The notes under the pieces: generated by a model
Seen by the model: only the letters and a program-made list of their open reading frames with translations
Databases searched by the model: none
Told to the model about the DNA's origin: nothing
Part shown: piece after piece, positions 41,501 through 62,285 of the stretch
How the letters are laid out: each line of letters opens with the position of its first letter
How positions within the stretch are numbered: position 1 is the stretch's first letter
Made by a program: the position numbers and the translations under genes
NCBI GenBank assembly: GCA_001823065.1
Contig: MHTJ01000003.1
Span: forward strand, 9,844 to 73,843
Reading direction: 5' to 3'
Source of the DNA: Candidatus Vogelbacteria bacterium RIFOXYD1_FULL_44_32
Lineage (GTDB): Bacteria > Patescibacteriota > Minisyncoccia > Phycocordibacterales > XYD1-FULL-46-19
DNA length: 64,000 bases

Positions 41501-44500
41501 TTCGCTTGTTGATGCTGCCAACTTTGTCGCCACTTCCACCACCGCCACCTCCACCTTTGCTGGTGGCCTCGCGGTGGAGACGAGTGGGTTGGTGTATGAC
41601 TACTCCACCAATTTTGTGGGTATCGGTACAGCTTCGCCATCTCAAGAATTGGAAGTTATCTCCTCGGCAAGTAATAGTAATGTTTTTGTTGTTTCCGATT
41701 CCGCGGGTACTGATACCAGTATTTTCCGTATCTTTGAAGTATCTGGTGGCGGTGGGCTGGCCTCACTTTATAGTGCGTCTGATGCAGAAGCGATTAGGCT
41801 AAGTGCCACCGGTGACTCGTGGATTAACACCGACAATGATCTGGGTATTGGCACCACTTCACCCCTGGCTCGCCTCGATGTCGTCGGCTCTCTATCTGGT
41901 ACTACACCGCTATTTCAAGTTTCTAGTCTGGGCGCGAGCTATGCCACCACGACTCGAATGATAATTGATTCGAGTGGTAATGTGGGGATCGGTTCATCCG
42001 CTCCTTCTGAATTGCTCACTATTCAAGGAGCAAGTGGTGGTATATCGGGTGTTACAGCCGATACGGTGAGAGTTATGATCCATGATACCTCTAATGGTGG
42101 AACTTGGGATATTGTAAATCCGTTTGCTTCTTTTGCTTTTTCGCGGGCTGACACTAGCGGCGAAGGCGCTGGAATAGCCGCGGAAATTGGAGCCGTCCAT
42201 AATGTCTCTAGCACTGGTGGTAATGTGCGAATAGGATTTTTTACCGCTCCAACAACCTCTGGGACTATGTTGGAAAGAATGAGTATTATGGATGCTGGTG
42301 AGGTGGGTATAGGTACCACTACTCCAAGTGCTAAATTGACTGTTACATCAGATACCGCCAGTGATACTTTTGCTTCTTTGTATCTTGGAGCTATTGAAAC
42401 AGCCAGTGACACCTATCTGACTGGTCTATTTAAATCTGGTACAACCAATGGAGCTCCAGATGTGCGGATAGTAGACAAGGATACCAGTCAAGCTCGCGCT
42501 GCTTTACAGATTCAAGGTAATAATGGAAGTACCGAAATCGCTTTCTTTGGGGCCGGTGGTAATGTCGGCATCGGCACCACTACTCCCCAAAATATTTTGA
42601 CAGTAAATAGTGCTTACAATGTGAGCAATGATTCATTGGATGTGAGAATTAACAATACGACCGATAGTTATAATCGGGGGGCGGGTATCCTTTTCTCTGA
42701 CGCCTATCTTACTACTGGGCGGATAATGGGTATGCGTAGTCGGGGGGCATCACTAGCTGCCGACCCACTTTATGGCAGTATGTTTTTGGATTATCGCAGT
42801 AATTTTCATCTATTTAATAATTTAGCTGGTACGACGGAATTTATGCGGATTACTTCAGCGGGCAACATGGGGATTGGCACTACCACACCCCTTGCCCGTC
42901 TTGATGTTGTCGGCTCTCTATCCGGCACTACCCCACTCTTCCAAGTTTCCAGTCTGGGGGCCAGCTATGCTACGAGCACTAAATTTATAATTGATTCCAG
43001 TGGTAATGTCGGCATCGGTACTACCACCCCCGGCACTTCACTTGGTGTCGCGGGGGCTGGAGTCTTCGGGGCCAATGTAACAGCCAGTGTTTTCAATGCG
43101 ACCTCCACCACCGCTACCTCCACTTTTGCGGGGGGTTTGGCGGTGGAGACAAGCGGGTTGGTGTATGACTATTCAACCAATTTTGTGGGAATTGGAACCG
43201 CTAATCCTCATGGAGCTTTAGAAGTCGATGGTAGTATATATACAAGTCGTGAAAATAGAGGCATCTTCTTTAATAATTTTTTCAATGGTACTAATTACAC
43301 AACCATTAATAACGGAGAATCTGGCGTTTTAAATTTCGGTTCTTCTGGGGAGTTAAATTATAGTACCGCCGCTTCTCGCTCAGCTGGGGCAACTGGTTCG
43401 CAGACAAATATATTTACCGTTCTTAATACTGGGAATTTTGGTATCGGCACCTCCACTCCCGGTACCCAACTTGGTGTCGCTGGCGCGGGTGTCTTTGGTA
43501 CTTATGTCAATGCCAGCATATTTAATGCGACTTCTACAACCGCCACCTCCACCTTTGCTGGTGGGCTGGCAGTAGAAACCAATGGACTGGTTTACGACTA
43601 CTCCACAAATTTTGTGGGGGTTGGGACGGCTGCCCCTCAAACAAAATTCAACGTTAATACAGCTAGTGCTTCTCTAAGTTGGAATGGTATGTTTAGAAAT
43701 ACGACTCATCAGTCGGCTGTTGGTCCTGGAGTGGGAGTAAAGTTTCAGCTGGGTGGTGCCGACACTCCTTCTGAATTGCAAAAATGGGCGGGTATTGCCG
43801 GGGTCTCAGAAGTAGGCACTTATGAACAAACAGTCGCTCTAGCCTTTTATACTCGTTTGGAAGCTAGTGCGGCTGATGCGACTGAAAAAATGAGAATTAC
43901 AGGATCGGGCAATGTCGGCGTGGGTACCACCACCCCCTTAGCTCAACTCACCGCTTCGTCTACTAGTAAGATTGGTCTTATTATTGATCAGCGTGGAACT
44001 TCTGACATTGCTCAATTTCAAGATGCTGGTACTTCAATTTTTGTGATTAAAGATGGTGGCAATGTCGGTATCGGTACCACTACCCCGGGGTCGCTTTTGT
44101 CTATCGGCAACACCGGCACCGGGCCTATCAACCTGTCCGCTACCGCCACTTCCACCTTTGGTTTTGGCATCAACCTCCGCGGCGGTTGTTTCTCGATTAA
44201 TGATTCCTGTCTCGCCAGCGGTGGGTCGGGGACCCCGGTGGGTAGTAATGGAAATATTCAGTTTAATAATTCCGGTTCTTTTGGTGGGGAAAATGACTTA
44301 AACTGGAATTCTACTTTGGACATCTTACAAGTTGCAACATCTACTGGTGGTCAGATACATGTCGGATATATAAATAACAGTAATATCACAGGTACAGCAG
44401 CCGCTAATACCTATATATCGTCCGGCCATAGTTTTCTTTCAAACGGAACAAATGCGGCAACTATCTATCTTGCGGTTGGAGGCGCCGACACTTCGATTGG

Positions 44501-46672: not shown

Positions 46673-47545
46673 CTAGAACAAAGCCGTGAGGATTGCGTTC
46701 AGACGGGAAGCGGGACCCCGTCCGGTTGGGTACTTTTCAAACGAAACGTGTCCGTCCATGTACAGGATGTTGGCGCCACCAGGAACGTGGTTGAAATCGT
46801 CGGCTTGGGCGTCGACGATATCCCAGAGGACGTAAACATTGCTCTGGGCCGCTGAGCTTGCCGCCGCGTTGTTGATGTCGGTAATGAAAAATCGCTCAAT
46901 GCCTTCGCGCAAGCGCAAGCCTTTGGTGGCTGCTCCACCCGCGTTGGTCCAAGACAAGTCGTTATCCGCGGCCGTTGCGTTTCCGCCACCGACAGCGGTG
47001 GCCACTCCAACTAAGGCGCCGACAAATCCGGCGTCGATATAGGTGCCAACGGCGTTGGCTAGGGTCATGGCACCGTCGTTGAAGTTGACCCCGGGTACTC
47101 CAATCAGGTCTTGGAAGGCCCAACCGGAATACACCAACGAAAGCGAATCTAATTCACAGGGGGCAAACGTCCCGCTGGGGCTGTTTCCCACCTGCCACCG
47201 ACCACCGGTGAAGCGGTCGATGCCGTCGGAATCGGACGGGCAGACAAACACCTTCAAATCAGCGATGTACTCGGGGAACACTGAGTCCCCGCGCACGATG
47301 AAGTCAAACCCGGGCGACTCGCAAAAGTCCCCGTCCCTCGTCTTCGCGGTTGGGAACTTCTCGCCCTTGCTCTCGTTCGCGTACATCTTGAGCACTATTC
47401 CGATCTGCTTGAGATTGTTGGCGCAGGACGCCCGACGGGCCGCTTCGCGCGCCCGGGCCAGTGCCGGCAACAGAATGGCCGCGAGGATGCCAATGATGGC
47501 GATGACCACCAACAGTTCGATCAGGGTAAATCCCTTTTTCTTCAT
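46673..47545 (-). CDS. DUF1559 / H-X9-DG protein with type IV pilin-like (prepilin-type) N-terminal cleavage/methylation domain
   Basis: N-terminus [49 protein letters not shown] and C-terminus [15 protein letters not shown]. This family is hugely expanded in Planctomycetota/Verrucomicrobiota. It has ~60% GC and a GAAGGAG SD. Confidence 0.85.
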
Positions 47546-47862: not shown

Positions 47863-48339
47863 ATGAACAATTACGCATTTATTGATGCTCAAAATGTCCA
47901 CCTAGGCATCAAATCTTTGGGTTGGGATTTGGACTGGGGAAAATTTAGAGTTTATCTGAGAGAAAAGTATAATATTTTCACGGCCTATATTTTCATTGGA
48001 TTTATCCAGACCAACCAAGATTTATATTCCGAGCTACAGAAAGCGGGTTATATTTTGATATTTAAACCAATTATTTTAGACAACAACGGAAAAGCTAAGG
48101 GAAATTGTGACGCGGATCTAGTATTGCACTCTCTTATAGAAAAAGATAAATATGACCAGGCGGTTATTGTTACCAGTGATGGAGATTTTTATTCCCTCGT
48201 TCGCTATTTATACGAGAACGGTAAACTGGCAATGGTGCTAAGTCCTTATGCCGAAACCTGCTCCAAATTGTTAAAAAGAGAAGCTAAAGATAAGATAAAC
48301 TATATGGACAATTTGAAGGGGAAAGTTGGGCAAAAATGA
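47863..48339 (+). CDS. NYN-domain (LabA/DUF88-like) protein, predicted RNase
   Basis: Motifs FIDAQNV, GNCDADLV and VIVTSDGDF are characteristic of the NYN/PIN-like family. Confidence 0.75.
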   Translation: MNNYAFIDAQNVHLGIKSLGWDLDWGKFRVYLREKYNIFTAYIFIGFIQTNQDLYSELQKAGYILIFKPIILDNNGKAKGNCDADLVLHSLIEKDKYDQAVIVTSDGDFYSLVRYLYENGKLAMVLSPYAETCSKLLKREAKDKINYMDNLKGKVGQK

Positions 48340-49026: not shown

Positions 49027-51204
49027 GTGTATATGTTCAAAAGTATCCTAAAGACCAATAAAACAAAAATCTTCACTCTACTCCTAGTAGCGGTGGTAGT
49101 TTTTGGTGCCTTTGGTTTACCCCTGACCACTTATGCCGACGACGGTAGTGCTACCGCTTCAGTGGATTCAACCTCGACTGCGGACACTGGTGATACTGGT
49201 AGTACAGACACCGGCAGTGCGGATGCTAGTACCAGCGAAAGTGCTTCTGGTTCAGCTGATACTACTGCCACCGGCTCAACCGAAGAGCCAACGGGCACTG
49301 GAGAGGGTGTATCGGACACTGACCAGAGTGTATCGGACACAGATTCAACCACCACTTCCGGTGAGGGTGAGACTGGTACCAGTGACCAGAATACTGGCGA
49401 TACTCAAACTGGGGATAACTCTACAGGGGAAGAAGAAACCAGTGATACTGGCACGACCACTACTCCGATCTTGCCTGATACAGAAAACACTGATACTGGC
49501 ACGACTACGGAGCCGACCTTACCTGGAGATAATGGGACCACGACGGTTCCTGTGCTTCCTGAAGGGGGTGATACTGGTACGACCACCGTGGCGACTACTA
49601 CCGAGCCAGTGACTGGTGGTGAAGACCAAGATGAACTTCCTTTAGTAGAGGGATATCTTCCTCCGGCGGAAGATGTGTCAGGTGAATATGATATGACTAC
49701 ATCCGAGGACGATGGGTTGCCAGCGGTAGCTGAAGATGTTTCCGCTGAATACAACTTCACCACTCTATCGGACACTCTGCCAGCGGTGGAAGAGGAGGTC
49801 TCCCTCGAATACAATTTTAATACACTTGAATCAGGAGGGGGAACTCTAGCTGAAGATGTTTCCGCTGAGTACCACTTCACGACTCTATCGGACAATAATC
49901 CTCCAGTTGACGAGGAGTATTCCTTGGAGTACCACTTCACCACTCTATCGGACACAAATCCTCCAGTGGATGAGGAACACTCCAATGAATATTTCTTTAC
50001 GACATTGTCCGATACAAATCCTTCTAGCGAGGAGTTTTCTAATGAATACAATTTTACCACCGACGATGATGGTGGTACTAATCCACCAAATGAGGAATAT
50101 TCTAATGAGTACCAATTTGGAACTACTGGTGGGGGTGGAACAGAAACGGAAGAAGAATATTCCAATGAGTACAGCTTTACCACCGACGATGATGGTGGTA
50201 CTAATCCACCAAATGAGGAATATTCTAACGAGTACCAATTTGGAACTACTGGTGGGGGTGGAACAGAAACGGAAGAAGAATATTCCAATGAGTACAGCTT
50301 TACTACCGATAACGGTGGCTGTACCGAAAATTGTGGTGGCGGAGGTGGAGGCGGTGGTGGCGGAGGCGGGCATAATCACAAAAAGAATAAAGTTTTGCCT
50401 AGTCCGTGCATGCCACTACTCTTGAAATATATTCGCTTGGGGGCCAACAACGATCCGTATGAAGTTTACAAACTGCAGTGGTTCTTGCGGACTTTTGAAA
50501 ATATGGAAATACCTTTGTCCGGAGTGTATGACCAGACCACATATGAAGCAGTAAAAATATTCCAAGCGCGCCATGCGACAGATGTGCTCCACAGCTGGGG
50601 TATTACTGAGCCGACCGGCTATGTCTATATCACCACCCAACTGATGGTAAATTATATTTACTGTGATATTGACGAGCCACTGCGTCTAGAATTATTGCTC
50701 GAGGAACAAACGGGCACTGGTTTTGGTTATACTAAATTACCAAGTAAAGGTGATGGTCTAGACTATCTGGTCTATCCGCCAAAAACCGAGCGTACGGTGT
50801 TTGAAGGTATCACTCTTGATTTACCCGCCGAAGCAGACAAAAAAGTTGGTAATATTTTTCAACTAGCCACCGCCGGTTTTATGGATTGGCTTCAGGGTAC
50901 CGAAGGTAAGTATTGGTGGTGGTTGATTATTTTGCCGTTGGTAGTGGTTGCTGGTTATCTATATCGGCGATTGAAAGTTGAACAAACTGACAAAGAATTA
51001 GCCCAAGAGGCGCAGGCCACAATTTTGGAAGCCGACCGCGAAATGACCGCTGAACCAATTGTCGGAGCCGAGGCGGAGACACCACATAAAGAAGATGTGC
51101 CCGATGAAATTATTGCCGAATACAATGCGGCTAATGGCGGACACCAAGCTGGCCAAGAAGCCATAGTTTTGCCAGGCGAGAGTCTAGAGGACCGAGAGAG
51201 TTAA
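49027..51204 (+). CDS. secreted acidic repeat protein with a PG_binding_1-like peptidoglycan-binding domain, a single TM helix and a cytoplasmic tail
   Basis: It has a signal peptide, a Thr/Asp/Glu/Gly-rich region with ~19-aa repeats (EEYSNEYxFTTLSDTNPP), and a G12 tract. The PG-binding region reads YEVYKLQWFL...SGVYDQTTYEAVKIFQARH and the TM segment is WWWLIILPLVVVAGYLY. Confidence 0.75.
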   Translation: MYMFKSILKTNKTKIFTLLLVAVVVFGAFGLPLTTYADDGSATASVDSTSTADTGDTGSTDTGSADASTSESASGSADTTATGSTEEPTGTGEGVSDTDQSVSDTDSTTTSGEGETGTSDQNTGDTQTGDNSTGEEETSDTGTTTTPILPDTENTDTGTTTEPTLPGDNGTTTVPVLPEGGDTGTTTVATTTEPVTGGEDQDELPLVEGYLPPAEDVSGEYDMTTSEDDGLPAVAEDVSAEYNFTTLSDTLPAVEEEVSLEYNFNTLESGGGTLAEDVSAEYHFTTLSDNNPPVDEEYSLEYHFTTLSDTNPPVDEEHSNEYFFTTLSDTNPSSEEFSNEYNFTTDDDGGTNPPNEEYSNEYQFGTTGGGGTETEEEYSNEYSFTTDDDGGTNPPNEEYSNEYQFGTTGGGGTETEEEYSNEYSFTTDNGGCTENCGGGGGGGGGGGGHNHKKNKVLPSPCMPLLLKYIRLGANNDPYEVYKLQWFLRTFENMEIPLSGVYDQTTYEAVKIFQARHATDVLHSWGITEPTGYVYITTQLMVNYIYCDIDEPLRLELLLEEQTGTGFGYTKLPSKGDGLDYLVYPPKTERTVFEGITLDLPAEADKKVGNIFQLATAGFMDWLQGTEGKYWWWLIILPLVVVAGYLYRRLKVEQTDKELAQEAQATILEADREMTAEPIVGAEAETPHKEDVPDEIIAEYNAANGGHQAGQEAIVLPGESLEDRES
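50050..50289 (+). repeat. 2 x 120-bp near-perfect tandem repeat inside the 49027 gene
   Basis: NEYNFTTDDDGGTNPPNEEYSNEYQFGTTGGGGTETEEEYS is encoded twice, with only 1-2 nt differences. Confidence 0.8.
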
Positions 51205-51285: not shown

Positions 51286-54200
51286 ATGGTGTCTAACCAC
51301 TCTAAGCGGTATAAAGGCCGATATTCATTTCTAACTTACATCAAGCCAGCTTTCCTAGTGCTGGCTTTTTTATTCTTTTTCCAATTAATCACGCCAGTCG
51401 CCCTGGCTCAAGACGGGACGGTGGAGGAATCATTGCCGCTTCCTCCGGCAGAGGAGCCAGCACCCGTTCTTCCGCCGGCCGGAGGTAGTATCAGCGACCC
51501 CGAAGCTCCAGCCGAACTGGCAGCAGTTGCGGAGGAAGACAACCTAGTCGCTTTGTCACTTACTGTCACCAGTCGTTCGCCGGTAGACTTAGGCAAGCCA
51601 CCAGTGGGAACGGGCTTTAAAATTTCGGCCGACACCTCGGACGGCTCGCTGGCATATGAGTTTCCCCTGACTCTCCCTCCTGGCCGCCAGGGTTTGGCCC
51701 CGGAGCTGTCTTTGCTCTATTCTAGCCGTCCTACTAGCGCTACCTCTTTATTTGGTTACGGTTGGACGTTGTCGATTCCTTTTATCGAACGAAAAAATCT
51801 TCATGGTTCGGATCGGCTGTACGAGGAGACAGATTTCACTTCTTCCTTAAGTGGTGACTTGGTGGCCTTAGGCGGCGAGACCTATCGCGCCAAAGTTGAT
51901 GAGGGGGAGTTTCTGGTTTATGTTTTCCGCGATAATGCTTGGACAGTGACAGACAAAAGCGGCATGGTCTACCGCTTCGGCCAGACCGCCGCCGCCCGTC
52001 AGGATGATGCTGATCATCCGACCCACGTCTACAAATGGATGCTCGAGGAAGTTCGCGATCTAAACGGAAATTATGTTACCTATCGTTATGCCAAAGATTC
52101 CAACCAAATTTATCCGGAATCAATAACTTATACTCACCATGCTGATACGGCTGGTCTATATTCAATACGCTTCATCAAAACTCCACGTGATTATCCCGTC
52201 ACCTCTTGGGCGGCAGGTTTTAAAGTTGTCACCAATCATATTATAAGTGAAATAGTTGTTGAAGTCGGAGGAGGGTGGACGAGGAAGTATTCTTTCGCCT
52301 ATACCCAGCGAGACAACCAGAGTCGGTCATTGCTAACCTCAATCATCGAATGGGGAAATGACGGTTCAAAAATCATCTCTTTACCACCGACCACCTTTAC
52401 TTATCAAGTATCAGCTAAGGCCTGGGTTGAAAACAGCCGTTGGACTTTGCCAGTGTCTCTTGTCGGAGACAACTACGAAGACACGGGCGCGCGAATTGCC
52501 GACATTAATGGCGATGCTTTACCCGATATTATAACTAATAATAATGGCTCCTTTCTTAACACTGGTTACGGTGACTGGGACAGAGCCGGCCCCGAGTGGA
52601 CCCTGCCTGTGGCGTTGACGAAACCAGATGTGGTCCACCCTGGAAGTATGTTGATTGACGTTAATGGTGATGGATTGATTGATATTGCCCAAAGTCGGGA
52701 TGGTGATGAGGACCCGGATATTGTCTATTTTAATACTGGCCACGGCTGGGTGACATCGTCGACCACGGTTCCGGTCTATTTTGCGACGCGAAACGGCAGT
52801 GATAACGGAGTCCGGGTTGCCGACATTAATGGCGACGGTCTGCCTGATTTGTTGCGTTTTCATGCTGGCGACGGCGCATTGGGTAATCGTGTTTATATCA
52901 ATAATGGTTCCGGCTGGAGCGAAGATCGGTCCTGGGTTTTACCGGAGCCGACCCTTGCCGGCGACGGCCAGACTGATTTGGGCACGCGTTTTGGCGACGT
53001 TAATGGTGATGGCCTAGTCGATATCCTTCGCAAAGATGAAAGCGTTAGTAAAGTCTATTTCAATACTGGTCACGGTTGGGAACTGGCCTCTGCTTGGGTT
53101 ATTACCGCCGAGGAATTTATGAACGACGGTGGTGATCGAGGCACGCGAGTTTATGATGTCAATAGTGACGGATTTGACGATCTTGTGAATAGTCAGGCGC
53201 CAGGTGATGTTGGTGTTTATCTCAATACGGGTAGTCCTTCTAACGACTGGACTTTAGACATGAGCTGGCGTATTCCTTTCAGGTTGGTTGATTATCTTCG
53301 CGACGGGGGCCGTTACGTTGATCCGGGAACGCGGTTGGTGGATTTAAACGCTGACGGACTCCTGGACATACTTCAGTCACGATCAAGTGGCCCGAACCAG
53401 GTTTATTTTCAAGCTGGCCCACAGCCTGATCTCCTTCAGAGTGTGACATTTAGTCGGGGCGGTGGGGCGAACATTACCTATCTCTCCAGCACCTTTTATC
53501 ATCCAAATGGTCTTGGTCGTCTCAATCAAAAGTTGCCGTTTCCGATGATAACGGTTAGTACGATTACCGAGCACGATGGCCTCGGCGGTAGTGCCACTAC
53601 CGAATATAGTTATAAAAATGGCGAATATTATCACGAGAACATTCTTGACCGAAAATTTGCCGGCTTTGGCCAAGTGGAAAAAACCGATGCCATGGGCAAT
53701 ATTACTAAAACCTATTTTCACCAAGGTAATGATTCTGATTCTGGTCGCGGGGAATTTGAAGATCATTTTAGTAAAATTGGGCGAATTTATCGAGTAGAAA
53801 AATATGATTCAGCTGGCAATTTATTGACCCAAGAAATTAGTCGGTGGGGGAGGGTGGCCTTGGCTGTCAGCGCTGGCCTTGATCGATCTTTTGTTCCATT
53901 GTTAAACAATATAAAAATGACTTACGATGGCGACAATAGTCACCGTGATGTGGCTGAAGCCTATACTTATGATAATTTTGGTAATTTAGTTCGGGCCGAA
54001 AATTATGGTGAAGTGGTGGCTAGTGACGATGGAAGTTTTAGTGATCTGGGTTCTGATAAAACAACCAAGATTTTGAGTTATGTCACAAACTCAACAACGG
54101 GCATATTGGGGTTAGTAAGGATGGAAGAATTGAGAAATAACAATGGAGCCAATGTGGCGGTCAAAAAATATTATTATGATAATCTTCCCATTGGGGCAGT

Positions 54201-57192
54201 TCAACGGGGCAATTTAACCAAAACGGAAAGTTGGGTTGGGGGCACTAAATGGGTGACGACGGCCAATAGTTATGACAACCAGGGTTTACTTAAAACAAGT
54301 ACTGATGGGCGAGGATATTCCACCACTTATTTATACGACGAATTTGGCTTGTACCCTAGTACAATATCCAATTCTCTAGGGCAGGTCACGTCCTATCAAT
54401 ATGATTATGCTTCAGGGCAGGTCACTAAAGAAACTGACCCTAATGGTTTTGCTAAAATTAAAATATACGATGGGTTGGGGCGAGTGGTTACTGAAAAAGA
54501 GCAAACAGGTGGGGTGGCCGAGGTGGTGACAAAAGAAACATTTTATCGTGACGATATTGTACCTAAACTTATTCAGACCAAAAAATTTCTTCTCTTAAAT
54601 TTATCTAACGAGGTCTATAGTTATTTTGATGGTCTGGGTCGACTAGTCGAAGAGAGGACGCAAATGGAAAATGCCGGCGACTATGCTGTGACCTCGCTTA
54701 AATACAACCCAAAAGGAGAATTATTAGCTAAGACTTTGCCCTACCTGGAAACTGGTTCAAGTTATACTGCACCAACCTTTCCCGTTGGTCTTACCACTAA
54801 TTTTACTTACGACTCTCTTGGTCGGGCTAAAACGGTGAGTGATTCGCTGGGCACGACCAATTACTCTTACACCGATTGGGTGACTACAATTACCGACCCG
54901 CTTGGCAAAGTCAAAAAATATACGACCGACGCTTATGGCCGACTAATCTTGGTTGATGAGGGGTATGGCAAGGGCTTTTATCATACTCGGTATTATTATA
55001 GTCCCACGGGTAATTTAATCAGGATTATGGATGCACTGAATAATATCCGTGATTTTACTTATGATAACCTGGGGCGTCGTCTGTCGGCTCAAGACTTGCA
55101 TCAGTCGAGCGATACTAGTTTTGGTCTGTGGTCTTATACCTATGACGATAATAATAACCTGTTTTCCAGGAAAGATCCGCTCGGTCAAACTGTAAATTAT
55201 ACTTACGATGGCCTAAATCGGCCATTAATAGAAGACTATCTCGGTCGAGCCAATCCGGAGGTAAAATATACTTATGACAATTGTATAAATGGAGTGGGGC
55301 GCTTGTGTAAGGTGGCTATAGTTGGACTGTCTAAAAATTATCAATATACTCCGCGTGGTGAAGTACGGGTGGACAACAGAGTTTATAATCAAGCTTCTTA
55401 CACTACAGTCAATGCTTACGATTTAGCTGGCAATATAGTATCTATTCGTTTACCCGACAACAGTCAAATTATTTATGAATATAATTTAGTTGGAAAAGTT
55501 GAAAACATATCACGCCGTGATATTTTCAATAGCTCGGCCATTATCCCCGTTGTTTCCAATTTTGATTATAGCCCTCATGGCTTACCTGTTTATCAGCAAA
55601 ATGCTGATGGCATAAAAAATATATTTACCTATGACCCGACCAAAAGTTATCGTCTGCAGACAAAGACAACCAAAAAAGATAATATCAATTATCAATTAGT
55701 TAGTTATGAATATGATTCAGTTGGTAATATTACCAAACTCATTGATACCTCTCCTAACCTATTAGCCAAGACAGTTAGTTATACTTATGACGATCTCTAC
55801 CGACTGACCAAGGCCGTAGCGACCAACGCCAGTTCGACTTTATATTCCCAAGATTTTCTTTATGGCCCAACGGGGAACATTTTGAAAGGGTCGATGGGTA
55901 TATATGCTTACAGTGGTATCGATTTTACTTCACCTCAAGCTGTAACCTCAATTGCTTCTTCTACTTACAGCTATGATAAAAACGGCAATATGTTAACCGC
56001 CCCTAGCGCCACTTACGCTTGGGACTACAATAATCGCTTAGTTAAGAGTGTGGCCGGAACCACTACCACCACCTATGAATATGACAACGAAGGCCAACGA
56101 ATCTCTCAAAAAACTGGAGCCAGTGCTACACTGTATATTAGCCCCAACTACGATTTGACCGGTTCGGTCATTGATAAACATGTCTATGCTGGTGACCAGT
56201 TAGTCGCTACTCTCCGTACTCAAAACGGCACCACTAGCCCTTATTACACCCACTCCGACCACCTGTCCGGCACTAGTCTGGTAACTGACCAAAATAGTAA
56301 CGTGATGCAGAGCATAGACTATTTACCTTATGGTGCCAAAAGAATAAGTTCTGGAACGGATGTTTCTCAAAGAGAGTTCATTGGTCAAATTTATGATGAA
56401 TTGACTTCGCTAAGCTATCTGAATGCACGCTACTACGATGGGTCGAGAGGACAATTTCTTTCCCAAGATCCAATGTTTTGGCAACTTCCATCGACCTTGC
56501 TCGTAGATCCTCAACAGCTAAATTCTTATAGCTACGCAAGAAACAATCCTCTAATATATAAAGATCCACTAGGTCTATACAACATAAAAACTGGAGCTGT
56601 TGAAAAGGGTGATAATCTGTCTAAGATTAGAAATTTGATTAATGGGGCAAATGGAACAAGCTACTCTGTTTCTCAACTTGCGAAGCTAAATAATATATCA
56701 AATCCAGATCGTATTTATGTTGGTCAAACAATCAAACCGAATAACTTGGTCCCAGATATTACAAGATCCCTGAATAGTGTCAATCAATCACATGGAGTGC
56801 AAGCCCAGGGTCCGGTTGTTGCAGGTTCTGGTTCTACCAATTCTACTCCAGCGGCCAAGGGTATAGGGTCGGTTGAATTTGGATGGAATTTTAGGGAAGG
56901 AGGTAAATGGGATTTGAAGTCGCAGGGTTCAAATGTAGAAGGAGGAGTATTCTGCCAGAAGTCAGCTTGTGGAGGACAGAGAGCAACAAGTTATATTTAC
57001 AATTCTCAAGAAGTCTCGGGTGACGCACCAGGAAATATTCATTATGGTTATGTTGGCAAAAGAGCAGAGTATAGTGAAAGCACACTCTTATTCTTCGGTG
57101 GAGCAGTTCAAACTATTACACACCCAGGTCAATTTGGAGACCCTAGTTCTGACAAAACTTACATCATGCAGGGTTATGGGTTAAACTATTAA
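51286..57192 (+). CDS. RHS/YD-repeat polymorphic toxin with SpvB-like N-terminal domain and FG-GAP beta-propeller (Tc-toxin TcB-TcC-like fusion), C-terminal LysM plus unknown toxin domain
   Basis: Signal peptide; SpvB motif GSLAYEFPLTLPPGRQGLAPELSLLYSS; six DxNGDGxxD FG-GAP repeats; more than 20 YD repeats (YxYDxxGRL); RHS core end DPQQLNSYSYARNNPLIYKDPLGL; and then a LysM (GDNLSKIRNL...IYVGQTIKP) plus a ~110-aa Cys-containing domain. Confidence 0.9.
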   Translation: MVSNHSKRYKGRYSFLTYIKPAFLVLAFLFFFQLITPVALAQDGTVEESLPLPPAEEPAPVLPPAGGSISDPEAPAELAAVAEEDNLVALSLTVTSRSPVDLGKPPVGTGFKISADTSDGSLAYEFPLTLPPGRQGLAPELSLLYSSRPTSATSLFGYGWTLSIPFIERKNLHGSDRLYEETDFTSSLSGDLVALGGETYRAKVDEGEFLVYVFRDNAWTVTDKSGMVYRFGQTAAARQDDADHPTHVYKWMLEEVRDLNGNYVTYRYAKDSNQIYPESITYTHHADTAGLYSIRFIKTPRDYPVTSWAAGFKVVTNHIISEIVVEVGGGWTRKYSFAYTQRDNQSRSLLTSIIEWGNDGSKIISLPPTTFTYQVSAKAWVENSRWTLPVSLVGDNYEDTGARIADINGDALPDIITNNNGSFLNTGYGDWDRAGPEWTLPVALTKPDVVHPGSMLIDVNGDGLIDIAQSRDGDEDPDIVYFNTGHGWVTSSTTVPVYFATRNGSDNGVRVADINGDGLPDLLRFHAGDGALGNRVYINNGSGWSEDRSWVLPEPTLAGDGQTDLGTRFGDVNGDGLVDILRKDESVSKVYFNTGHGWELASAWVITAEEFMNDGGDRGTRVYDVNSDGFDDLVNSQAPGDVGVYLNTGSPSNDWTLDMSWRIPFRLVDYLRDGGRYVDPGTRLVDLNADGLLDILQSRSSGPNQVYFQAGPQPDLLQSVTFSRGGGANITYLSSTFYHPNGLGRLNQKLPFPMITVSTITEHDGLGGSATTEYSYKNGEYYHENILDRKFAGFGQVEKTDAMGNITKTYFHQGNDSDSGRGEFEDHFSKIGRIYRVEKYDSAGNLLTQEISRWGRVALAVSAGLDRSFVPLLNNIKMTYDGDNSHRDVAEAYTYDNFGNLVRAENYGEVVASDDGSFSDLGSDKTTKILSYVTNSTTGILGLVRMEELRNNNGANVAVKKYYYDNLPIGAVQRGNLTKTESWVGGTKWVTTANSYDNQGLLKTSTDGRGYSTTYLYDEFGLYPSTISNSLGQVTSYQYDYASGQVTKETDPNGFAKIKIYDGLGRVVTEKEQTGGVAEVVTKETFYRDDIVPKLIQTKKFLLLNLSNEVYSYFDGLGRLVEERTQMENAGDYAVTSLKYNPKGELLAKTLPYLETGSSYTAPTFPVGLTTNFTYDSLGRAKTVSDSLGTTNYSYTDWVTTITDPLGKVKKYTTDAYGRLILVDEGYGKGFYHTRYYYSPTGNLIRIMDALNNIRDFTYDNLGRRLSAQDLHQSSDTSFGLWSYTYDDNNNLFSRKDPLGQTVNYTYDGLNRPLIEDYLGRANPEVKYTYDNCINGVGRLCKVAIVGLSKNYQYTPRGEVRVDNRVYNQASYTTVNAYDLAGNIVSIRLPDNSQIIYEYNLVGKVENISRRDIFNSSAIIPVVSNFDYSPHGLPVYQQNADGIKNIFTYDPTKSYRLQTKTTKKDNINYQLVSYEYDSVGNITKLIDTSPNLLAKTVSYTYDDLYRLTKAVATNASSTLYSQDFLYGPTGNILKGSMGIYAYSGIDFTSPQAVTSIASSTYSYDKNGNMLTAPSATYAWDYNNRLVKSVAGTTTTTYEYDNEGQRISQKTGASATLYISPNYDLTGSVIDKHVYAGDQLVATLRTQNGTTSPYYTHSDHLSGTSLVTDQNSNVMQSIDYLPYGAKRISSGTDVSQREFIGQIYDELTSLSYLNARYYDGSRGQFLSQDPMFWQLPSTLLVDPQQLNSYSYARNNPLIYKDPLGLYNIKTGAVEKGDNLSKIRNLINGANGTSYSVSQLAKLNNISNPDRIYVGQTIKPNNLVPDITRSLNSVNQSHGVQAQGPVVAGSGSTNSTPAAKGIGSVEFGWNFREGGKWDLKSQGSNVEGGVFCQKSACGGQRATSYIYNSQEVSGDAPGNIHYGYVGKRAEYSESTLLFFGGAVQTITHPGQFGDPSSDKTYIMQGYGLNY
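52501..53375 (+). other. FG-GAP/integrin-like beta-propeller repeat region of the RHS protein
   Basis: Repeats DINGDALPDI, DVNGDGLIDI, DINGDGLPDL, DVNGDGLVDI, DVNSDGFDDL and DLNADGLLDI. Confidence 0.7.
56579..57189 (+). other. hypervariable C-terminal toxin module (CT1) downstream of the RHS DPLGL autoproteolysis motif; LysM at ~56590-56730
   Basis: Sequence similarity to the orphan copies stops exactly after YKDP(L/T)G. Confidence 0.7.
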
Positions 57193-57201: not shown

Positions 57202-57777
57202 ATGAAAAAATATTCATTCAAAAAAATAATTACTATTTTAGCTGTTGCACTAGTACTGGTAATTCTAATTTACTATATTCTTGGTGAGTTAGGAGGAAAT
57301 GCTTTCCGTATCCGAGCAGGTTTGTTGATTCATAAAGAAGAATTTAATGAATTTGTAGACAAGTTCCTTAATCAAAATTCTATAAAAAATATTCAAACGT
57401 CTGTTGGTTTCTTTAGCACTACGGAAAGTATAAATAGTTGTAGCCGCTATCCTGAAGAAGGCGATACACCTTGGACTTGTAGTGAGGGGGAATACCCAAA
57501 TATCGTATCAATAAATCTTGCGAGTATTAATGCAGTTTTAGAACATGAACATATCCCGAATGAAGAATACCAATACTTTGTTGATTTTATGGAAAGATAT
57601 AAATTCAACGGTGTGGGTAAGAATAATAATGACAGATCTGTCGAAATAGAAGATAAACTAAAAGGCTTGAGATATTACGAACAACAAAATTCAAGTAAGC
57701 TTACTGAAAATAATGAGTATCTTTTTGTTAAAAAAATTAATGAACATTGGTTTTACTATGTGAGAGATTGGAATTAG
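57202..57777 (+). CDS. putative cognate immunity protein for CT1 (N-terminal TM anchor)
   Basis: A small ORF 10 nt downstream of the toxin gene. Both position and size are typical of RHS immunity genes. Confidence 0.5.
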   Translation: MKKYSFKKIITILAVALVLVILIYYILGELGGNAFRIRAGLLIHKEEFNEFVDKFLNQNSIKNIQTSVGFFSTTESINSCSRYPEEGDTPWTCSEGEYPNIVSINLASINAVLEHEHIPNEEYQYFVDFMERYKFNGVGKNNNDRSVEIEDKLKGLRYYEQQNSSKLTENNEYLFVKKINEHWFYYVRDWN

Positions 57778-57789: not shown

Positions 57790-58881
57790 TTGAAATTTGA
57801 CAACGAAGGCCAACGAATCTCTCAAAAAACTGGAGCCAGTGCTAAACTATATATTAGCCCCAACTACGATTTGACTGGTTCGGTCATTGATAAACACATC
57901 TACGCTGGTGACCAGTTGGTTGCCACCCTGCGTACCCAAAACGGCACCACTAGCTCTTATTACACCCACTCTGACCACTTGTCTGGCACTAGTCTGGTGA
58001 CTGACCAAAATAGTGTGATTACTGAACTAATCGACTATTACCCCTACGGCGATATTCGCCTAGACCAAAAAACCTCCACCTACAATGAAAGCAAGAAATA
58101 TATTGGTCAGGAGTATGATGAGGCTACTGGTCTTTCTTATATGAATGCCCGTTATCAAAATGGAAAAACAAGTCGATTTTTGAGCCAGGATCCTGTGTTT
58201 TGGGAAATCGGAAATGAGGGAGAGATCAAGCAGAAGACGGGGCTCGGTCTACAAGAACTCCTAGCTGATCCTCAGCAATTTAACAGCTATTCTTACGCTC
58301 GGAACAATCCGATTACATATAAAGATCCAACAGGTAATCTTACTTGGGGGGCTCTCTTAAATCATCCTATTGGTAGCATACAAAGTGCGACAAATTGGGG
58401 ATTATTTTCTCTCGGCGGAAACATTATGAATAAACCATTTGCAGCCTCTCTTTTGAGACATTCAGCTTCCCTTAATCCTTCTGCAGAACTTAATATAGAT
58501 TCTGGTAATCAAAAGCAATATGGAAATCCAGTTGACCAAGTAATGCAGACAGATCAGTACAAGAACTACATTAAAGATACAATCCAGAGAGCGGAGAGCG
58601 GTAAGATGAAAAACTCAACTCACTTTGAGTTTGAAAATAGAAGTGATTTGTACTACGCCTTACATGGTGCAAATATTGAATCACAAATTACTCAAGAAAA
58701 TGGGGAATGGGTAGTAAATAGCACTGTGTCAGATAAATATGATTTTAATAAACCTAATCCTCAAACAGAGAAGGGTAGAGTAATTAAAATTCCTGCAAGT
58801 AATGCTTATAAAGCTCAAAGTAAGGGTATCCTAAGTAACTATAATGTAAAGATTAAAATTAGTGATAGAATTAAAAAATAA
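57790..58881 (+). CDS. orphan RHS C-terminal fragment (rhs core remnant plus alternative toxin domain CT2), TTG start
   Basis: 57796-58020 is ~90% identical at the DNA level to 56086-56310 of the main rhs gene. It retains DPQQFNSYSYARNNPITYKDPTG and then a novel ~185-aa C-terminus. Confidence 0.8.
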   Translation: MKFDNEGQRISQKTGASAKLYISPNYDLTGSVIDKHIYAGDQLVATLRTQNGTTSSYYTHSDHLSGTSLVTDQNSVITELIDYYPYGDIRLDQKTSTYNESKKYIGQEYDEATGLSYMNARYQNGKTSRFLSQDPVFWEIGNEGEIKQKTGLGLQELLADPQQFNSYSYARNNPITYKDPTGNLTWGALLNHPIGSIQSATNWGLFSLGGNIMNKPFAASLLRHSASLNPSAELNIDSGNQKQYGNPVDQVMQTDQYKNYIKDTIQRAESGKMKNSTHFEFENRSDLYYALHGANIESQITQENGEWVVNSTVSDKYDFNKPNPQTEKGRVIKIPASNAYKAQSKGILSNYNVKIKISDRIKK

Positions 58882-58886: not shown

Positions 58887-59396
58887 ATGAAGAGAAAACT
58901 GCTAATTATTGTAACTAGTGTCACATTAATTATTTTGGGTGGTGCCATGTTTCTGTACTACTTTTGGTTTGTTGCTCCAGAAAAAAAGATTGCATTGGAG
59001 TGTCAAAATTTTGTTCCAAGTTGGTTGGATTTTATTGAATGTTCAGGAGTAGTTGCTATCAATGATGGGTGGGATATGGATTATATTTCACTCAAGGATC
59101 ATGTTCATGACTATGAAATTGCACGTGTCTATGATCAGAAGCAATACTTGTTTGTTGAGAATAAGCTATTTGTAATCAATCAAAAGTATATTGAAAATAG
59201 TGCCTCAGATAACGTTGAGGTTACTTATTATCATAAGTTGTTCCAAAATGGAAAATTGATTGAGAACTCTTACGGTAGTATTTCTGATATCCCGACCTAT
59301 TTAATTGTCGACACTAAAACGGGGGAAGTAAAAGCATATAAAGATCTGATGGAAGCTTCTGAAGCAGAAAAGAAGTATTTTTCTGAAATAGAATAA
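58887..59396 (+). CDS. putative immunity protein for CT2 (N-terminal TM helix)
   Basis: Immediately follows the orphan CT2 with a 5-nt gap. Confidence 0.5.
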   Translation: MKRKLLIIVTSVTLIILGGAMFLYYFWFVAPEKKIALECQNFVPSWLDFIECSGVVAINDGWDMDYISLKDHVHDYEIARVYDQKQYLFVENKLFVINQKYIENSASDNVEVTYYHKLFQNGKLIENSYGSISDIPTYLIVDTKTGEVKAYKDLMEASEAEKKYFSEIE

Positions 59397-59408: not shown

Positions 59409-59723
59409 ATGCCTCAGGTAATACCATTAGAAATATTGAATAATTGTGTCGTAAATTTAAGACAAGAAACTAGCGCTGGTGATTTTAAGGTGGGAACAGG
59501 AATTCTTATTGGAAAAGATAACAAACTTTTACTCCTTACAGCTGAACATGTCGCACGGGATATGAAGAATGATGAGAAGCTTATCTTAAGAGTTGATAAT
59601 AATTTACCAATAAGCTTAGAAATTATTCAAGTTTGTAAGTTAGATAATTCAGGAAATATACCATATATAATGGTTCAAATGATCATGCTAAAAGATATGG
59701 AGAAAGAATTAATGCTCAATTGA
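59409..59723 (+). CDS. short protein resembling the N-terminal fragment of a trypsin-like serine peptidase (GTGILIG...LLLTAEHVA)
   Basis: The catalytic-His-like motif TAEHV is present but the ORF is only 104 aa. It may be a gene remnant. Confidence 0.3.
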   Translation: MPQVIPLEILNNCVVNLRQETSAGDFKVGTGILIGKDNKLLLLTAEHVARDMKNDEKLILRVDNNLPISLEIIQVCKLDNSGNIPYIMVQMIMLKDMEKELMLN

Positions 59724-59804: not shown

Positions 59805-60143
59805 ATGAAAAATAAAGCGGTTAAAAATCTATATTTAATAACAGGATTATTTTCAATCGTTCCTTTCTTTATTTATTACTGGGAAGCGATGCGTGGGAGG
59901 TTGCCAGATCCAGATGTATGGTTTATGGATTCCAATCACGGTCCTTGGAGATATGAATTACAGGGATTTCTAGTCCTTAATCCGATCCTGTTATTGCTAC
60001 TTATCACAGGAATATTATTCTTGAAGAACGTATTTAAGCTTAAAGAAAATAAAGATGCTGCATTTTATTTGGGATCTTTGATTGTCATTCAAATTCTAGT
60101 TCTTTTACTACAGCTTTTTGTGATGGGATGGACTATAGATTAG
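59805..60143 (+). CDS. small membrane protein (3 TM)
   Basis: A hydrophobic ORF within the cassette array. Confidence 0.4.
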   Translation: MKNKAVKNLYLITGLFSIVPFFIYYWEAMRGRLPDPDVWFMDSNHGPWRYELQGFLVLNPILLLLLITGILFLKNVFKLKENKDAAFYLGSLIVIQILVLLLQLFVMGWTID

Positions 60144-60822
60144 TCCCATTAAAGACATTTAAATCAACGTTCCCTTTTATTCCATCAATACTCCCTCTGG
60201 GATTATATTGCCAAATTTCCCAATCACCGATTTTTTTTGTATCAGGTTTTGAAAAAATATCTCTTATCCATATCTTTTCTTTCTCAAATTCTGGGTAGAG
60301 ATAATCTTCATAAAACTCGTAAGTAGTATAAAGAATTGGCTGTTTATTATAGTGACTCGAAATAACTCTTAGGTAGATTCTAAGTCCATTTACAAATTCC
60401 TCTTTTGGGGGTCTTTTTTTACTGTTACCGACATATTCCAGATCGACAACTGGTGGAAGCTGATACTTATCTAGTGGTACAGTTTTGATAAAATTTTCTG
60501 CTTGGATCTTGCCAGAGTGGGCTAAGGAATAGAAGTGGTACGCTCCAGTCGGAATATTATTTTTTATTGCATTATTCCAATTGAACATAAATTTAGCATC
60601 TCTTAAGTCATTAGCTTCTGTAGCTTTTATGTAAGCAAACCCTACGTCATCTTTTGAGACAGCTTGCCAATCAATGTCTCCCTGATAGTGTGATACGTCT
60701 ATACCCCTTATAGGGTATTTACTTCGATCCGGGTTGACTAGCCAAATCTTTCCCTGAATAAATAAAAAAAGTGATATGACAAATGCCAACAACAAAAAAA
60801 ATAGGAGTAATTTTTTACACAT
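60133..60822 (-). CDS. secreted GH25-family lysozyme (muramidase)
   Basis: It has a signal peptide. Motifs GIDVSHYQGDIDWQAV, GFAYIKATE and GAYHF form the GH25 signature. Confidence 0.8.
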   Translation of the reverse strand: MCKKLLLFFLLLAFVISLFLFIQGKIWLVNPDRSKYPIRGIDVSHYQGDIDWQAVSKDDVGFAYIKATEANDLRDAKFMFNWNNAIKNNIPTGAYHFYSLAHSGKIQAENFIKTVPLDKYQLPPVVDLEYVGNSKKRPPKEEFVNGLRIYLRVISSHYNKQPILYTTYEFYEDYLYPEFEKEKIWIRDIFSKPDTKKIGDWEIWQYNPRGSIDGIKGNVDLNVFNGTNL

Positions 60823-60851: not shown

Positions 60852-61793
60852 ATGAAAAGCCCCTATTACACCCACTCTGACCACTTGTCTGGCACTAGTC
60901 TGGTAACTGACCAAAGCAGTGTGATTACTGAACTAATCGACTATTACCCATACGGCGATATTCGCCTAGACCAAAAAACCTCCACCTACAATGAAAGCAA
61001 GAAATATATTGGTCAGGAGTATGATGAGGCTACTGGTCTTTCTTATATGAATGCCCGTTATCAAAATGGAAAAATCGGGCGGTTTTTGAGTCAGGATCCA
61101 GTATTTTGGGAGGTAGGACAAACCGATGAAGGTAAAGCCTCCCTAATGAATCCGCAAGCGCAAAATAGCTACAGCTATGCGGGTAATAATCCTATAACTA
61201 ACAAAGATCCGAGTGGACGTTTCTGGTGGGTTGGGTTCTATGATTGGAGCGGTTATGAGGGAATGAGTGGTGTGGCTATGAAAGCGGGTGAGGTCTTAGG
61301 AGGTCACTCGCGTGCTATGAATGCTATTCAACAGAATCAGAGCACGATTAATTCAGCGAGTTCAAAATACGGTGTCGATCCGGCCTTAACTAGTGCAATC
61401 ATAAGGGAAGAGCAATCACATCTTCTGCCTGGCGAAGGAATGAAAGATGCCGCGTTCCCAGACTCTCAACTGGCGGGATATGATGGAGGTGTGGGTATTA
61501 TGCAGGTAAGCGGTCGTGTAGGAAAAGACTTCGGTGGCTACACAAAAGCCGAGCTTGCTCGAAATCCTCAGAAGAATATTGATTCAGGGACGGCGTACTT
61601 GGAAAATATAAGTAGCTCTAGAAATACGACTAATCCTGCCACTATTGGAACAGCGTATAATGGCGCAGGCGCATACGGACAACGCATCCAATCACAGATG
61701 AATAATCCAAATTACAATACAAACGTTGTAGTTTATGGACTTCAGAAACTTGTTAAATCATTAAATTCTTATGTTAAAAGTCTTAAAAAATAA
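60852..61793 (+). CDS. second orphan RHS C-terminal fragment with lytic-transglycosylase (SLT)-like toxin domain (CT3)
   Basis: 60862-61110 is ~97% identical to 57957-58205. After NPITNKDPSG it carries AIIREEQSHL...GGVGIMQVSG...TAYL...AYNGAGAYG (E...GxMQ...AYNxG, SLT family 1-like). Confidence 0.75.
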   Translation: MKSPYYTHSDHLSGTSLVTDQSSVITELIDYYPYGDIRLDQKTSTYNESKKYIGQEYDEATGLSYMNARYQNGKIGRFLSQDPVFWEVGQTDEGKASLMNPQAQNSYSYAGNNPITNKDPSGRFWWVGFYDWSGYEGMSGVAMKAGEVLGGHSRAMNAIQQNQSTINSASSKYGVDPALTSAIIREEQSHLLPGEGMKDAAFPDSQLAGYDGGVGIMQVSGRVGKDFGGYTKAELARNPQKNIDSGTAYLENISSSRNTTNPATIGTAYNGAGAYGQRIQSQMNNPNYNTNVVVYGLQKLVKSLNSYVKSLKK

Positions 61794-61799: not shown

Positions 61800-62285
61800 A
61801 TGAAAAGAAATACTTTAATTTTGTTAGGGATTCTTGGCTCAGTTGTTCTAGTAATTGCCTTATATGTAGGAGGCTTCATCTGGATTGTGCCGAAGATGCA
61901 CGATGAAACCCTAACTAAGTTCTCAAACCAAATCTTTTCTGTGCAATTACCCGCTGATACTACCCAGGTCGATTCAATAAGTGTAATTGGCCAGCAATTT
62001 GCGAATGGAAATCATTGTGATTATCTGGCGGCGAGGTTGCTTGAGACATCGCTCCAAAAAGAAAAGCTAGAAAATGACTTTGAAGAGAACTACCAAGGAA
62101 CATCAAAACTACAATTTATCTGGCTGGATGAAAGTAATGCCTACACTGATGACATCTTTGACTCTTCAAAGATTTACTCATTGGATGATTGGCTAGACCA
62201 ACACGCACAAACTTCAAAAGCTGATGTAGTTGTCTATCTTTTTGAAGGCCATATGACATCATCATTTGATTATCGTTGTCGCTAG
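61800..62285 (+). CDS. putative immunity protein for CT3 (N-terminal TM anchor)
   Basis: Lies 6 nt downstream of CT3. Confidence 0.5.
   Translation: MKRNTLILLGILGSVVLVIALYVGGFIWIVPKMHDETLTKFSNQIFSVQLPADTTQVDSISVIGQQFANGNHCDYLAARLLETSLQKEKLENDFEENYQGTSKLQFIWLDESNAYTDDIFDSSKIYSLDDWLDQHAQTSKADVVVYLFEGHMTSSFDYRCR

Follow-up and report, generated by a model that had tools for sequence, protein, structure and literature searches.

Organization of the locus

The DNA analysed here is a 64-kb stretch (hereafter the window) of Candidatus Vogelbacteria bacterium RIFOXYD1_FULL_44_32, a member of the candidate phyla radiation (CPR)/Patescibacteria with contigs of 495–688 kb and a GC content of ~42–44%. 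It carries a gene for a 1968-residue protein, followed by an array of small genes, which we interpret below as a probable Rhs polymorphic toxin locus built on a TcB–TcC-like chain. The product is already on deposit for this organism, in identical form, as 'hypothetical protein A2571_01535'. A previous reading made from the letters alone (the sequence-only reading) had placed the gene in a small-genome, low-GC bacterium; the small genome stands, whereas the GC content is low only to a moderate degree. The features of the gene are the following (aa, amino acid positions in the product; pLDDT, predicted local distance difference test).

51286–57192, plus strand: main gene, ATG start, 1968 aa, a putative Rhs polymorphic toxin with a TcB–TcC-like single chain, assigned from the open reading frame (ORF) and its Pfam and NCBIfam domains
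51286–51408, plus strand: predicted Sec signal peptide, aa 1–41, with an ALA/QD cleavage site
51409–51585, plus strand: Pro/Ala/Glu-rich linker, aa 42–100, probably disordered (sequence; low pLDDT)
51586–52455, plus strand: SpvB/TcB N-terminal beta-rich domain, ~aa 101–390 (Pfam, YenB and Foldseek matches)
52456–53445, plus strand: six-bladed FG-GAP (integrin-like) beta-propeller, ~aa 391–720 (Pfam match, motifs and a confident model, aligning to the TcB propeller region)
53446–56319, plus strand: TcdB_toxin_midN and RHS/YD-repeat shell, ~aa 721–1678 (TcdB_toxin_midN, RHS_repeat and a precomputed TEN_YD-shell match)
56320–56577, plus strand: Rhs-associated core and aspartyl autoprotease, aa 1679–1764 (NCBIfam Rhs_assc_core, TIGR03696)
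56578–56751, plus strand: LysM domain, first module of the tip, aa 1765–1822 (Pfam match and fold)
56752–57189, plus strand: Ntox44 (PF15607) toxin module, aa 1823–1968 (Pfam match, plus a conserved 'PDIT' helix that precedes the Pfam boundary)

The ORF is as the sequence-only reading had described it. Its K/R-rich start precedes a hydrophobic stretch (aa 13–43), and the signal peptide that makes it a predicted secreted protein was called by eye and from a hydropathy scan rather than by a dedicated predictor. Profile searches also recovered the domains that had been read from the letters. Pfam SpvB matches at 4.4e-22, and a PDB sequence search found YenB at ~aa 103–195 (2.6e-11). FG-GAP_3 matches at 1.6e-19. 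The Ca-type motif DxNxDGxxD occurs six times, at aa 406, 458, 513, 571, 624 and 686, in line with the six blades proposed earlier. The RHS shell, core and PxxxxDPxGL motif were likewise found as claimed: TcdB_toxin_midN spans aa 682–809 (5.1e-18), RHS_repeat matches at 5.5e-37, and Rhs_assc_core at 1.4e-15. The Pfam scan of the protein gave no match to TcdB_toxin_midC. For aa 1154–1762 the closest PDB sequences are the Rhs shells 8h8a and 7q97 of type VI secretion systems (T6SSs) (~1e-14).

The single PxxxxDPxGL motif, PLIYKDPLGL (aa 1755–1764), delimits a C-terminal tip of 204 aa. Both autoprotease aspartates, D1728 (LSQDP) and D1760 (KDPLGL), are retained by every one of 37 homologues, and cleavage after L1764 is predicted from these intact motifs. 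The LysM motif noted earlier in the tip scores above its Pfam cut-off (5.9e-07, aa 1772–1817; 29.8 bits against 20.9), and the beta-alpha-alpha-beta fold of the module was confirmed. Ntox44, which the sequence-only reading did not name, covers aa 1868–1966 (3.3e-12; 47.1 bits against a cut-off of 24) with the motifs DLK1876, GNIHYG1916 and DPSSD1952. All residues invariant in the family alignment (W, D, K, N, G, D, D, G) are present, and the PDIT residues D60, T62 and L65 (tip numbering) are conserved in at least 90% of sequences.

An array of candidate immunity genes and orphan cassettes

The main gene is followed by a set of closely spaced genes.

57202–57777, plus strand: candidate immunity protein 1, 191 aa, one N-terminal transmembrane segment (aa 3–35), predicted N-in/C-out; 9 nt after the toxin stop
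57790–58881, plus strand: orphan Rhs C-terminal cassette 1, 363 aa, TTG start, Rhs_assc_core 1.5e-16; 12 nt after candidate immunity gene 1
58887–59396, plus strand: candidate immunity protein 2, 169 aa, one N-terminal transmembrane segment (aa 3–31); 5 nt after orphan 1
59409–59723, plus strand: small ORF, 104 aa, perhaps the remnant of a gene, faintly matching the beginning of Trypsin_2
59805–60143, plus strand: small ORF, 112 aa, three transmembrane segments
60133–60822, minus strand: N-terminally signal-anchored muramidase of family GH25 (7e-41), lying amid the orphan array and opposite to it in strand
60852–61793, plus strand: orphan Rhs C-terminal cassette 2, 313 aa, SLT lytic-transglycosylase tip, Rhs_assc_core 6.5e-18
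61800–62285, plus strand: candidate immunity protein 3, 161 aa, one N-terminal transmembrane segment (aa 1–34); 6 nt after orphan 2
56078–56298, unstranded: putative recombination block in the main gene, 92% identical in DNA over 221 bp to 57794–58014 in orphan 1

Both orphans are N-terminally truncated. Orphan 1 is 62% identical to aa 1598–1777 of the main protein and continues after PITYKDPTGN into a different tip of 180 aa, which has no Pfam or PDB match. Orphan 2 is 57% identical to aa 1651–1765 and carries an SLT tip (1.6e-09) that also gives MltC/EmtA-like matches, so that three different tips stand behind the same Rhs core within the locus. A blastn comparison of 55900–57192 with the window found, besides the block listed above, a sub-block at 56236–56293 that is 93% identical over 58 bp to 60858–60915 in orphan 2. 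This 92–93% identity of the core DNA would allow tips to be swapped by recombination.

All three candidate immunity ORFs have a single N-terminal transmembrane segment and begin 5–9 nt past a toxin gene; compared within the window, they show no relation to one another. Candidate 1 had no family match in profile searches and aligns over its full length with the equivalent ORF of another Ntox44 locus (L006) at 23–26% identity, both ending in 'DWN'. It was also considered as a relative of DUF5412, a family taken up below, and rejected (hhalign probability 8%).

This array is standard Rhs polymorphic-toxin anatomy, that is, a full-length toxin, its immunity gene and orphan toxin–immunity cassettes. 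The sequence-only reading, which framed the locus as Tc-toxin-like, had missed the three candidate immunity ORFs and the two orphan cassettes, and these mark an interbacterial polymorphic-toxin array. The GH25 muramidase might serve the cell itself as an autolysin or be one more factor that attacks walls.

Structural similarity to TcB–TcC

We modeled aa 96–820 (window positions 51571–53745) with AlphaFold2 using an alignment of 37 homologues, obtaining a pLDDT of 89.4 and a predicted template-modeling score (pTM) of 0.88. Model residues 1–14 (protein aa 96–109), at the end of the linker, have pLDDT values below 50. Every one of the 13 best PDB matches of the model in Foldseek (E 1e-29 to 1e-36) is a TcB or BC chain. 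They are headed by 6suf_F (E 3.5e-36, query TM-score (TMq) 0.76) from the TcdB2/TcdB1 holotoxins, with YenB at ~1e-31; over the SpvB region, TcB chains and the SpvB N-domain 6p0x are matched. Far behind TcB come mosquito SGS1, the SpvB N-domain, T6SS Rhs proteins, fungal GlcNAc-lectin propellers and teneurins. In its predicted structure and its sequence, the main protein is TcB–TcC-like, and its domains stand in the fused TcB-then-TcC order claimed earlier. Closure of the shell into a cocoon is suggested by analogy with solved TcB–TcC and Rhs structures, the fold modeled here being that of the N-terminal third only.

TcA-bound holotoxin TcB (6suf_F, 6h6e_F) fits the model better (TMq 0.76, root mean square deviation (r.m.s.d.) ~5 Å) than does the free TcdB2–TccC3 crystal structure 4o9x (TMq 0.64, r.m.s.d. 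9.6 Å). This difference may reflect alignment noise or the conformation of the propeller gate.

The Tc (ABC) toxins Photorhabdus TcdB2–TccC3 and TcdB1–TccC2 and Yersinia YenB–YenC share with the main protein the order SpvB, six-bladed propeller, midN, RHS shell, aspartyl protease and variable tip as well as the PxxxxDxxG cleavage motif, at a sequence identity of ~18–19%. Unlike them, the Vogelbacteria protein is a single chain with a predicted Sec signal peptide and no TcdB_toxin_midC match; its gene has no TcA gene nearby and is followed by immunity-like ORFs and orphan cassettes, and its payload consists of peptidoglycan-related modules rather than the eukaryote-directed enzymes of Tc toxins. 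The T6SS Rhs effectors RhsA (7q97), RhsP (8h8a), Tse5 (8cp6) and Tse15 (8uy4) have the RHS shell and C-terminal aspartyl autoproteolysis in common with it and match its N-terminal third at low TM-scores (TMq ~0.2). They carry N-terminal PAAR or plug domains and use the T6SS. Mosquito SGS1, the next-best structural match after TcB (8fjp, E 1.2e-13), and teneurins are single-chain YD shells that work without TcA, as we propose for the main protein, but both are eukaryotic, much less similar and not toxin–immunity systems.

Probable membership of the TcdB/TcaC-type class

WapA of Bacillus subtilis and Streptococcus suis, a Sec-exported Rhs toxin of monoderms, can be likened to the main protein. 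It combines a Sec signal peptide and RHS repeats with a polymorphic toxin at the C-terminus, has its immunity gene downstream and relies on no dedicated machine for injection; to our knowledge, it has no SpvB and FG-GAP propeller module. The tips of B. subtilis WapA are tRNases, whereas those at the Vogelbacteria locus that could be assigned are LysM–Ntox44 or SLT.

A closer precedent is the class of 'TcdB/TcaC-type' polymorphic toxins, which Zhang, de Souza, Anantharaman, Iyer and Aravind tabulated across many phyla in 2012 and defined by a signal peptide, SpvB, an integrin-like beta-propeller, RHS repeats, a variable C-terminal toxin and linked immunity or cassette genes (PMC3482391). The Vogelbacteria locus fits this definition exactly, its signal peptide and immunity genes being predictions. 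CPR/Patescibacteria are not among the lineages given in the survey, and the new element here is a member in a lineage absent from that listing; the class itself was already known. Our literature search for the combination of SpvB, FG-GAP and RHS returned nothing.

A database search yielded 520 relatives of the main protein at E<=1e-10. The best 120 of these 520 all have SpvB and RHS, nearly all have FG-GAP, and many come from Patescibacteria. Named sources of relatives include Kaiserbacteria, Wolfebacteria, Paceibacterota, Doudnabacteria, 'Patescibacteria group', Thermoanaerobaculia, Bacteroidales and the archaeon Methanoperedens. Homologues are 35–45% identical over the body and differ in tip family after the DPxG motif, in agreement with the hypervariable C-terminus proposed earlier. 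Their tip accessions include what we take to be CHAP and VanY/M15 wall hydrolases, alongside HNH and barnase-type nucleases.

The locus lacks two features of Tc membership, namely a TcA gene within the region searched (see below) and freedom from immunity-like genes, and, with candidate immunity genes, has those of polymorphic toxins; we therefore assign it to the latter and not to the Tc loci. That it is an Rhs polymorphic toxin of the TcdB/TcaC-type class in Ca. Vogelbacteria is likely in our judgement and forms, together with the mode of action proposed below, our joint best explanation. The discussion of a Tc survey draws a comparable line, setting Tc loci ('no predicted immunity proteins...') apart from immunity-encoding polymorphic toxins (PMC7861908).

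The LysM–Ntox44 tip and its proposed site of action

Among the 35 closest Ntox44 proteins, 11 have LysM, five RHS repeats, three SpvB and five a core domain of extracellular contractile injection systems (eCIS-core). The LysM–Ntox44 unit directly follows DPxGL in other Rhs C-termini too and, by these domain assignments, is a recurrent cassette; the sequence-only reading had called LysM unusual for an RHS payload, a view that the 11 of 35 proteins do not support.

We inspected the gene that follows Ntox44 at eight loci: the window, three SpvB–Rhs loci (L005–L007), an Rhs array (L009), Paenibacillus thiaminolyticus (L010), L011 and a Cytophagaceae locus (L012). In every case this gene is small and encodes N-terminal transmembrane segment(s) or a lipoprotein-type signal. 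In three of the eight, the partner belongs to or resembles DUF5412 (PF17428) (5e-46, 4e-08 and, just below the cut-off, 4e-05), which we regard, from this genomic association, as a candidate Ntox44 immunity family. The literature search found no papers on DUF5412. The DUF5412 proteins encoded directly downstream of Ntox44 genes, all with an N-terminal transmembrane segment or lipoprotein-type signal, lie at these positions.

L010, 3588–3965
L011 (1.9-Mb contig), 3427–3867 and 2328–2687
L012, 3393–3722

Immunity proteins against cytoplasm-acting toxins are normally cytosolic, and exported immunity is the pattern for envelope-acting toxins. Because the partner genes are exported or membrane-anchored at all eight loci, we suggest that Ntox44 may act on the wall or on the outer face of the membrane rather than as the annotated RNase, a choice to which we attach about even odds. 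The cell-wall target proposed by the sequence-only reading is in line with these partners. A metal-dependent hydrolase acting on the wall or on lipid-linked precursors is an assignment that we make with low confidence.

Stand-alone Ntox44 proteins of Paenibacillus and P. larvae phages have a Sec signal peptide and no translocation domain. Fourteen P. larvae phage records encode an Ntox44 protein of 195 aa that bears a Sec signal peptide and is annotated as 'polymorphic domain RNase protein'. In Paenibacillus phage Norbert (MW927521.1; L008 2106–2693) the gene is isolated on the opposite strand near the right genome end, with no DUF5412-like gene annotated next to it. This isolation led us to reject it as a member of a lysis cassette, and its position gives no functional clue. 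At L012, the end of an Rhs core (2612–2932, …NNPISFTDPDGM…) and Ntox44 (3001–3396) form separate ORFs ~70 nt apart, which suggests a disrupted or frameshifted orphan cassette.

A functional analogy is offered by TelC–TipC of Streptococcus intermedius, a type VII secretion system (T7SS) toxin and its immunity protein; the likeness we draw is one of function rather than of sequence or fold, and the carrier differs. TipC is reportedly membrane-associated and TelC is said to have an Asp-rich motif, as Whitney et al. are understood to have described in 2017. According to the passages on TelC in PMC12419801, the toxin attacks lipid II and works solely from outside the cell; Ntox44 is absent from the Lipocone/TelC families named there.

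Proposed mode of action

The 1968-aa protein would be exported by Sec via its N-terminal signal peptide, and its SpvB domain, six-bladed propeller and RHS/YD repeats would fold as a closed TcB–TcC-like cocoon. The Rhs aspartyl protease (D1728, D1760) would cut after DPLGL1764, freeing the 204-aa tip inside the shell. At a neighbouring cell, the tip would be let out with no TcA translocator and would act outside the cytoplasmic membrane, as the membrane-anchored partners at all eight loci suggest; LysM would dock it on peptidoglycan and Ntox44 would then damage a component of the envelope. The producer would be guarded by the outward-facing, membrane-anchored product of 57202–57777, judging by its position and topology, and the two orphan cassettes, each with a membrane-anchored ORF, may be a reservoir for tip replacement by recombination. 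In Tc toxins, the propeller is a gate opened by TcA; here it is the obvious candidate for the sensor that opens the cocoon.

Put together, the stand-alone cocoon would be a self-sufficient, Sec-exported 'grenade' whose propeller gate gives way when it meets a foreign cell wall, setting free enzymes that work from outside. Ntox44 would be an unrecognised family of envelope toxins with exported or membrane-anchored immunity proteins, DUF5412 included, and the system a main CPR weapon against hosts or rivals. We advance this extended proposal tentatively. If Ntox44 does act on the envelope, with DUF5412 or other membrane-anchored proteins as immunity, a widely copied RNase annotation would be corrected. 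As a small system of monoderm type whose payload would act extracellularly, the locus would offer a simple model for the opening of TcA-less cocoons.

Several points weigh against this proposal. The signal peptide, membrane topology, cleavage and closure of the cocoon are predictions, and the candidate immunity proteins belong to no known Imm family. In Pfam and in published work Ntox44 is described as a predicted RNase or nuclease, on prediction alone, and its fold, which has no solved relative, lends no support to our assignment of an activity. Five of the 35 nearest Ntox44 proteins have an eCIS-core domain, a linkage that would point to injection into cells. Among the relatives of the main protein, tips of the families PF01844 (HNH), PF00545 (ribonuclease) and PF15649 are presumably nucleases; the SpvB–RHS family must therefore have some way across membranes.

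An alternative view is that the locus encodes the same polymorphic toxin with Ntox44 as a cytoplasmic RNase, LysM as a mere wall receptor-binding module and a TcA-independent crossing of the membrane. In its favour are the annotation, the apparent nuclease tips of homologues and the presence of Ntox44 on carriers of T6SS, T7SS and eCIS type. We nevertheless consider this view doubtful. The partner genes of Ntox44 encode membrane-anchored proteins or lipoproteins rather than cytosolic ones at eight of eight loci, and Sec-secreted stand-alone Ntox44 proteins exist without a translocation domain. Structure comparison found no solved relative of Ntox44 and no similarity to any nuclease fold, and none of the 15 papers listed, out of 18 matching our literature search, was an experimental study of Ntox44 or of an RNase activity in it. 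The 2012 survey describes Ntox44 as 'all-alpha' with the motifs DxK, GNxxxG and DxxxD, gives no immunity family for it, and lists the type II secretion system, T6SS and T7SS as its only routes, TcdB/TcaC not being among them (PMC3482391).

Genomic surroundings and a possible role in host attack

The toxin locus lies among genes for exported and surface components.

38526–45899, plus strand: giant exported fibre-like protein, 2457 aa, 38% Gly/Thr/Ser, with an acidic low-complexity tail
46673–47545, minus strand: type IV pilin-like protein (N_methyl and DUF1559), between the fibre-like and 725-aa genes
47863–48339, plus strand: NYN-domain protein, in the same interval
49027–51204, plus strand: exported acidic tandem-repeat protein, 725 aa, with a weak PG_binding_1 match and a C-terminal transmembrane segment
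62700–63509, plus strand: exported staphylococcal-nuclease (SNase) homologue fused to a Ca-binding Excalibur domain, immediately following the toxin array
~1–34288: surface-polysaccharide biosynthesis cluster with several GT4 glycosyltransferases, a Wzx-type flippase and a DegT aminotransferase
35181–37691: SecA, after the polysaccharide cluster

In this setting, the locus could be mainly a host-attack or scavenging tool of an episymbiotic CPR cell, with wall enzymes delivered to the host alongside GH25 and SNase, and with immunity only against self-damage. CPR affiliation, the small genome, the peptidoglycan-related tip modules (LysM, SLT) and the exported surface genes (giant fibre-like and pilin-like proteins, GH25, SNase–Excalibur, polysaccharide cluster) fit such a role, and the SNase–Excalibur protein is consistent with extracellular nucleic-acid scavenging by the CPR cell. 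We regard it as unlikely to be the main function. In Rhs, contact-dependent inhibition (CDI) and WapA systems, orphan toxin–immunity cassettes together with hypervariable tips are an established sign that relatives compete with one another (PMC3482391). Moreover, free-living bacteria with large genomes have this architecture too (L004, on a 5.3-Mb contig), and no host is known. Host attack and our best explanation are not mutually exclusive. That CPR/Patescibacteria genomes of less than 1 Mb keep a ~6-kb Rhs cocoon toxin and spare cassettes is a large investment, and the upkeep of cassettes in a CPR cell points to contact-level conflict in its lifestyle.

Absence of a TcA gene from the region searched

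The search for TcA covered ~51 kb upstream and 13 kb downstream of the gene, taking in the window and the flank of its parent contig. No large ORF of the window matched a TcA-type family, as the sequence-only reading had stated, and the 10-kb downstream flank is likewise devoid of TcA, holding small ORFs and housekeeping genes only. Three homologue loci, two from Patescibacteria and one (L004) from a 5.3-Mb contig, have no TcA family within ±10 kb and show small ORFs after the Rhs gene.

The neighbours at 38526 and 49027, described earlier as not TcA-like, were both rejected as TcA for want of Pfam, NCBIfam or PDB similarity to it, although the former is TcA-sized. The 2457-aa protein, which gave no Pfam or PDB match at all, has about five 'ATSTFAGGLAVETSGLVYDYSTN(F/K)VGIGT' repeats and many 'GNVGIGT' units, and its N-terminus resembles the N-domain of a Bdellovibrio 'mosaic adhesive trimer' fibre at a sub-threshold 1.1e-06; from its sequence, it looks like a surface fibre or adhesin and not TcA. 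The 725-aa gene contains a 123-bp tandem repeat at 50037–50309 (2.2 copies, 96% match), and its product has degenerate 'EEYSNEY.F(T)T' peptide repeats and a run of 12 Gly.

The absence of TcA is the norm for the TcdB/TcaC-type class, in which nothing suggests that a TcA injector is required. Finding a Tc-like toxin that lacks an injector is no surprise in a class catalogued since 2012 and abundant in metagenomes. The sequence-only reading had presented the protein as an unusual and unexplained object, a view that is not supported, given that definition, more than 500 relatives, three TcA-less loci among them and known B–C fusions. It had also left delivery as an open question: if the payload acts on the envelope, the puzzle of the missing injector is largely removed, for LysM–Ntox44 only.

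A canonical Tc (ABC) B–C fusion directed against eukaryotic cells, with TcA encoded elsewhere in the genome, is very improbable. TcB is the best structural match, naturally fused B–C proteins and 'orphan' TcC genes are among those noted in Tc-bearing bacteria (PMC7861908), and the TcA search was confined to the window and its flank, which counts against our interpretation. Set against this are the lack of TcA over the region searched and at the three related loci, the immunity-like ORFs and orphan cassettes, payload modules that bind or cut peptidoglycan, which eukaryotes lack, and the undetected TcdB_toxin_midC; a TcA gene of ~7.5 kb would, moreover, be a large cost in a genome of less than 1 Mb. 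Even less credible is a non-toxic, teneurin-like surface adhesion protein with a vestigial toxin tip, suggested by the resemblance of the FG-GAP propeller to integrin and lectin propellers and by the adhesin-like neighbours, since the protease aspartates and cleavage motif are intact, every invariant Ntox44 residue is present, immunity-like ORFs are tightly coupled and teneurins are weak structural matches (E ~5e-05, TM-score ~0.1).

No tRNA genes were found in the window. The polysaccharide cluster also encodes a Wzy/O-antigen-ligase-like protein with TPR repeats, a UDP-GlcNAc 2-epimerase and an asparagine synthase.

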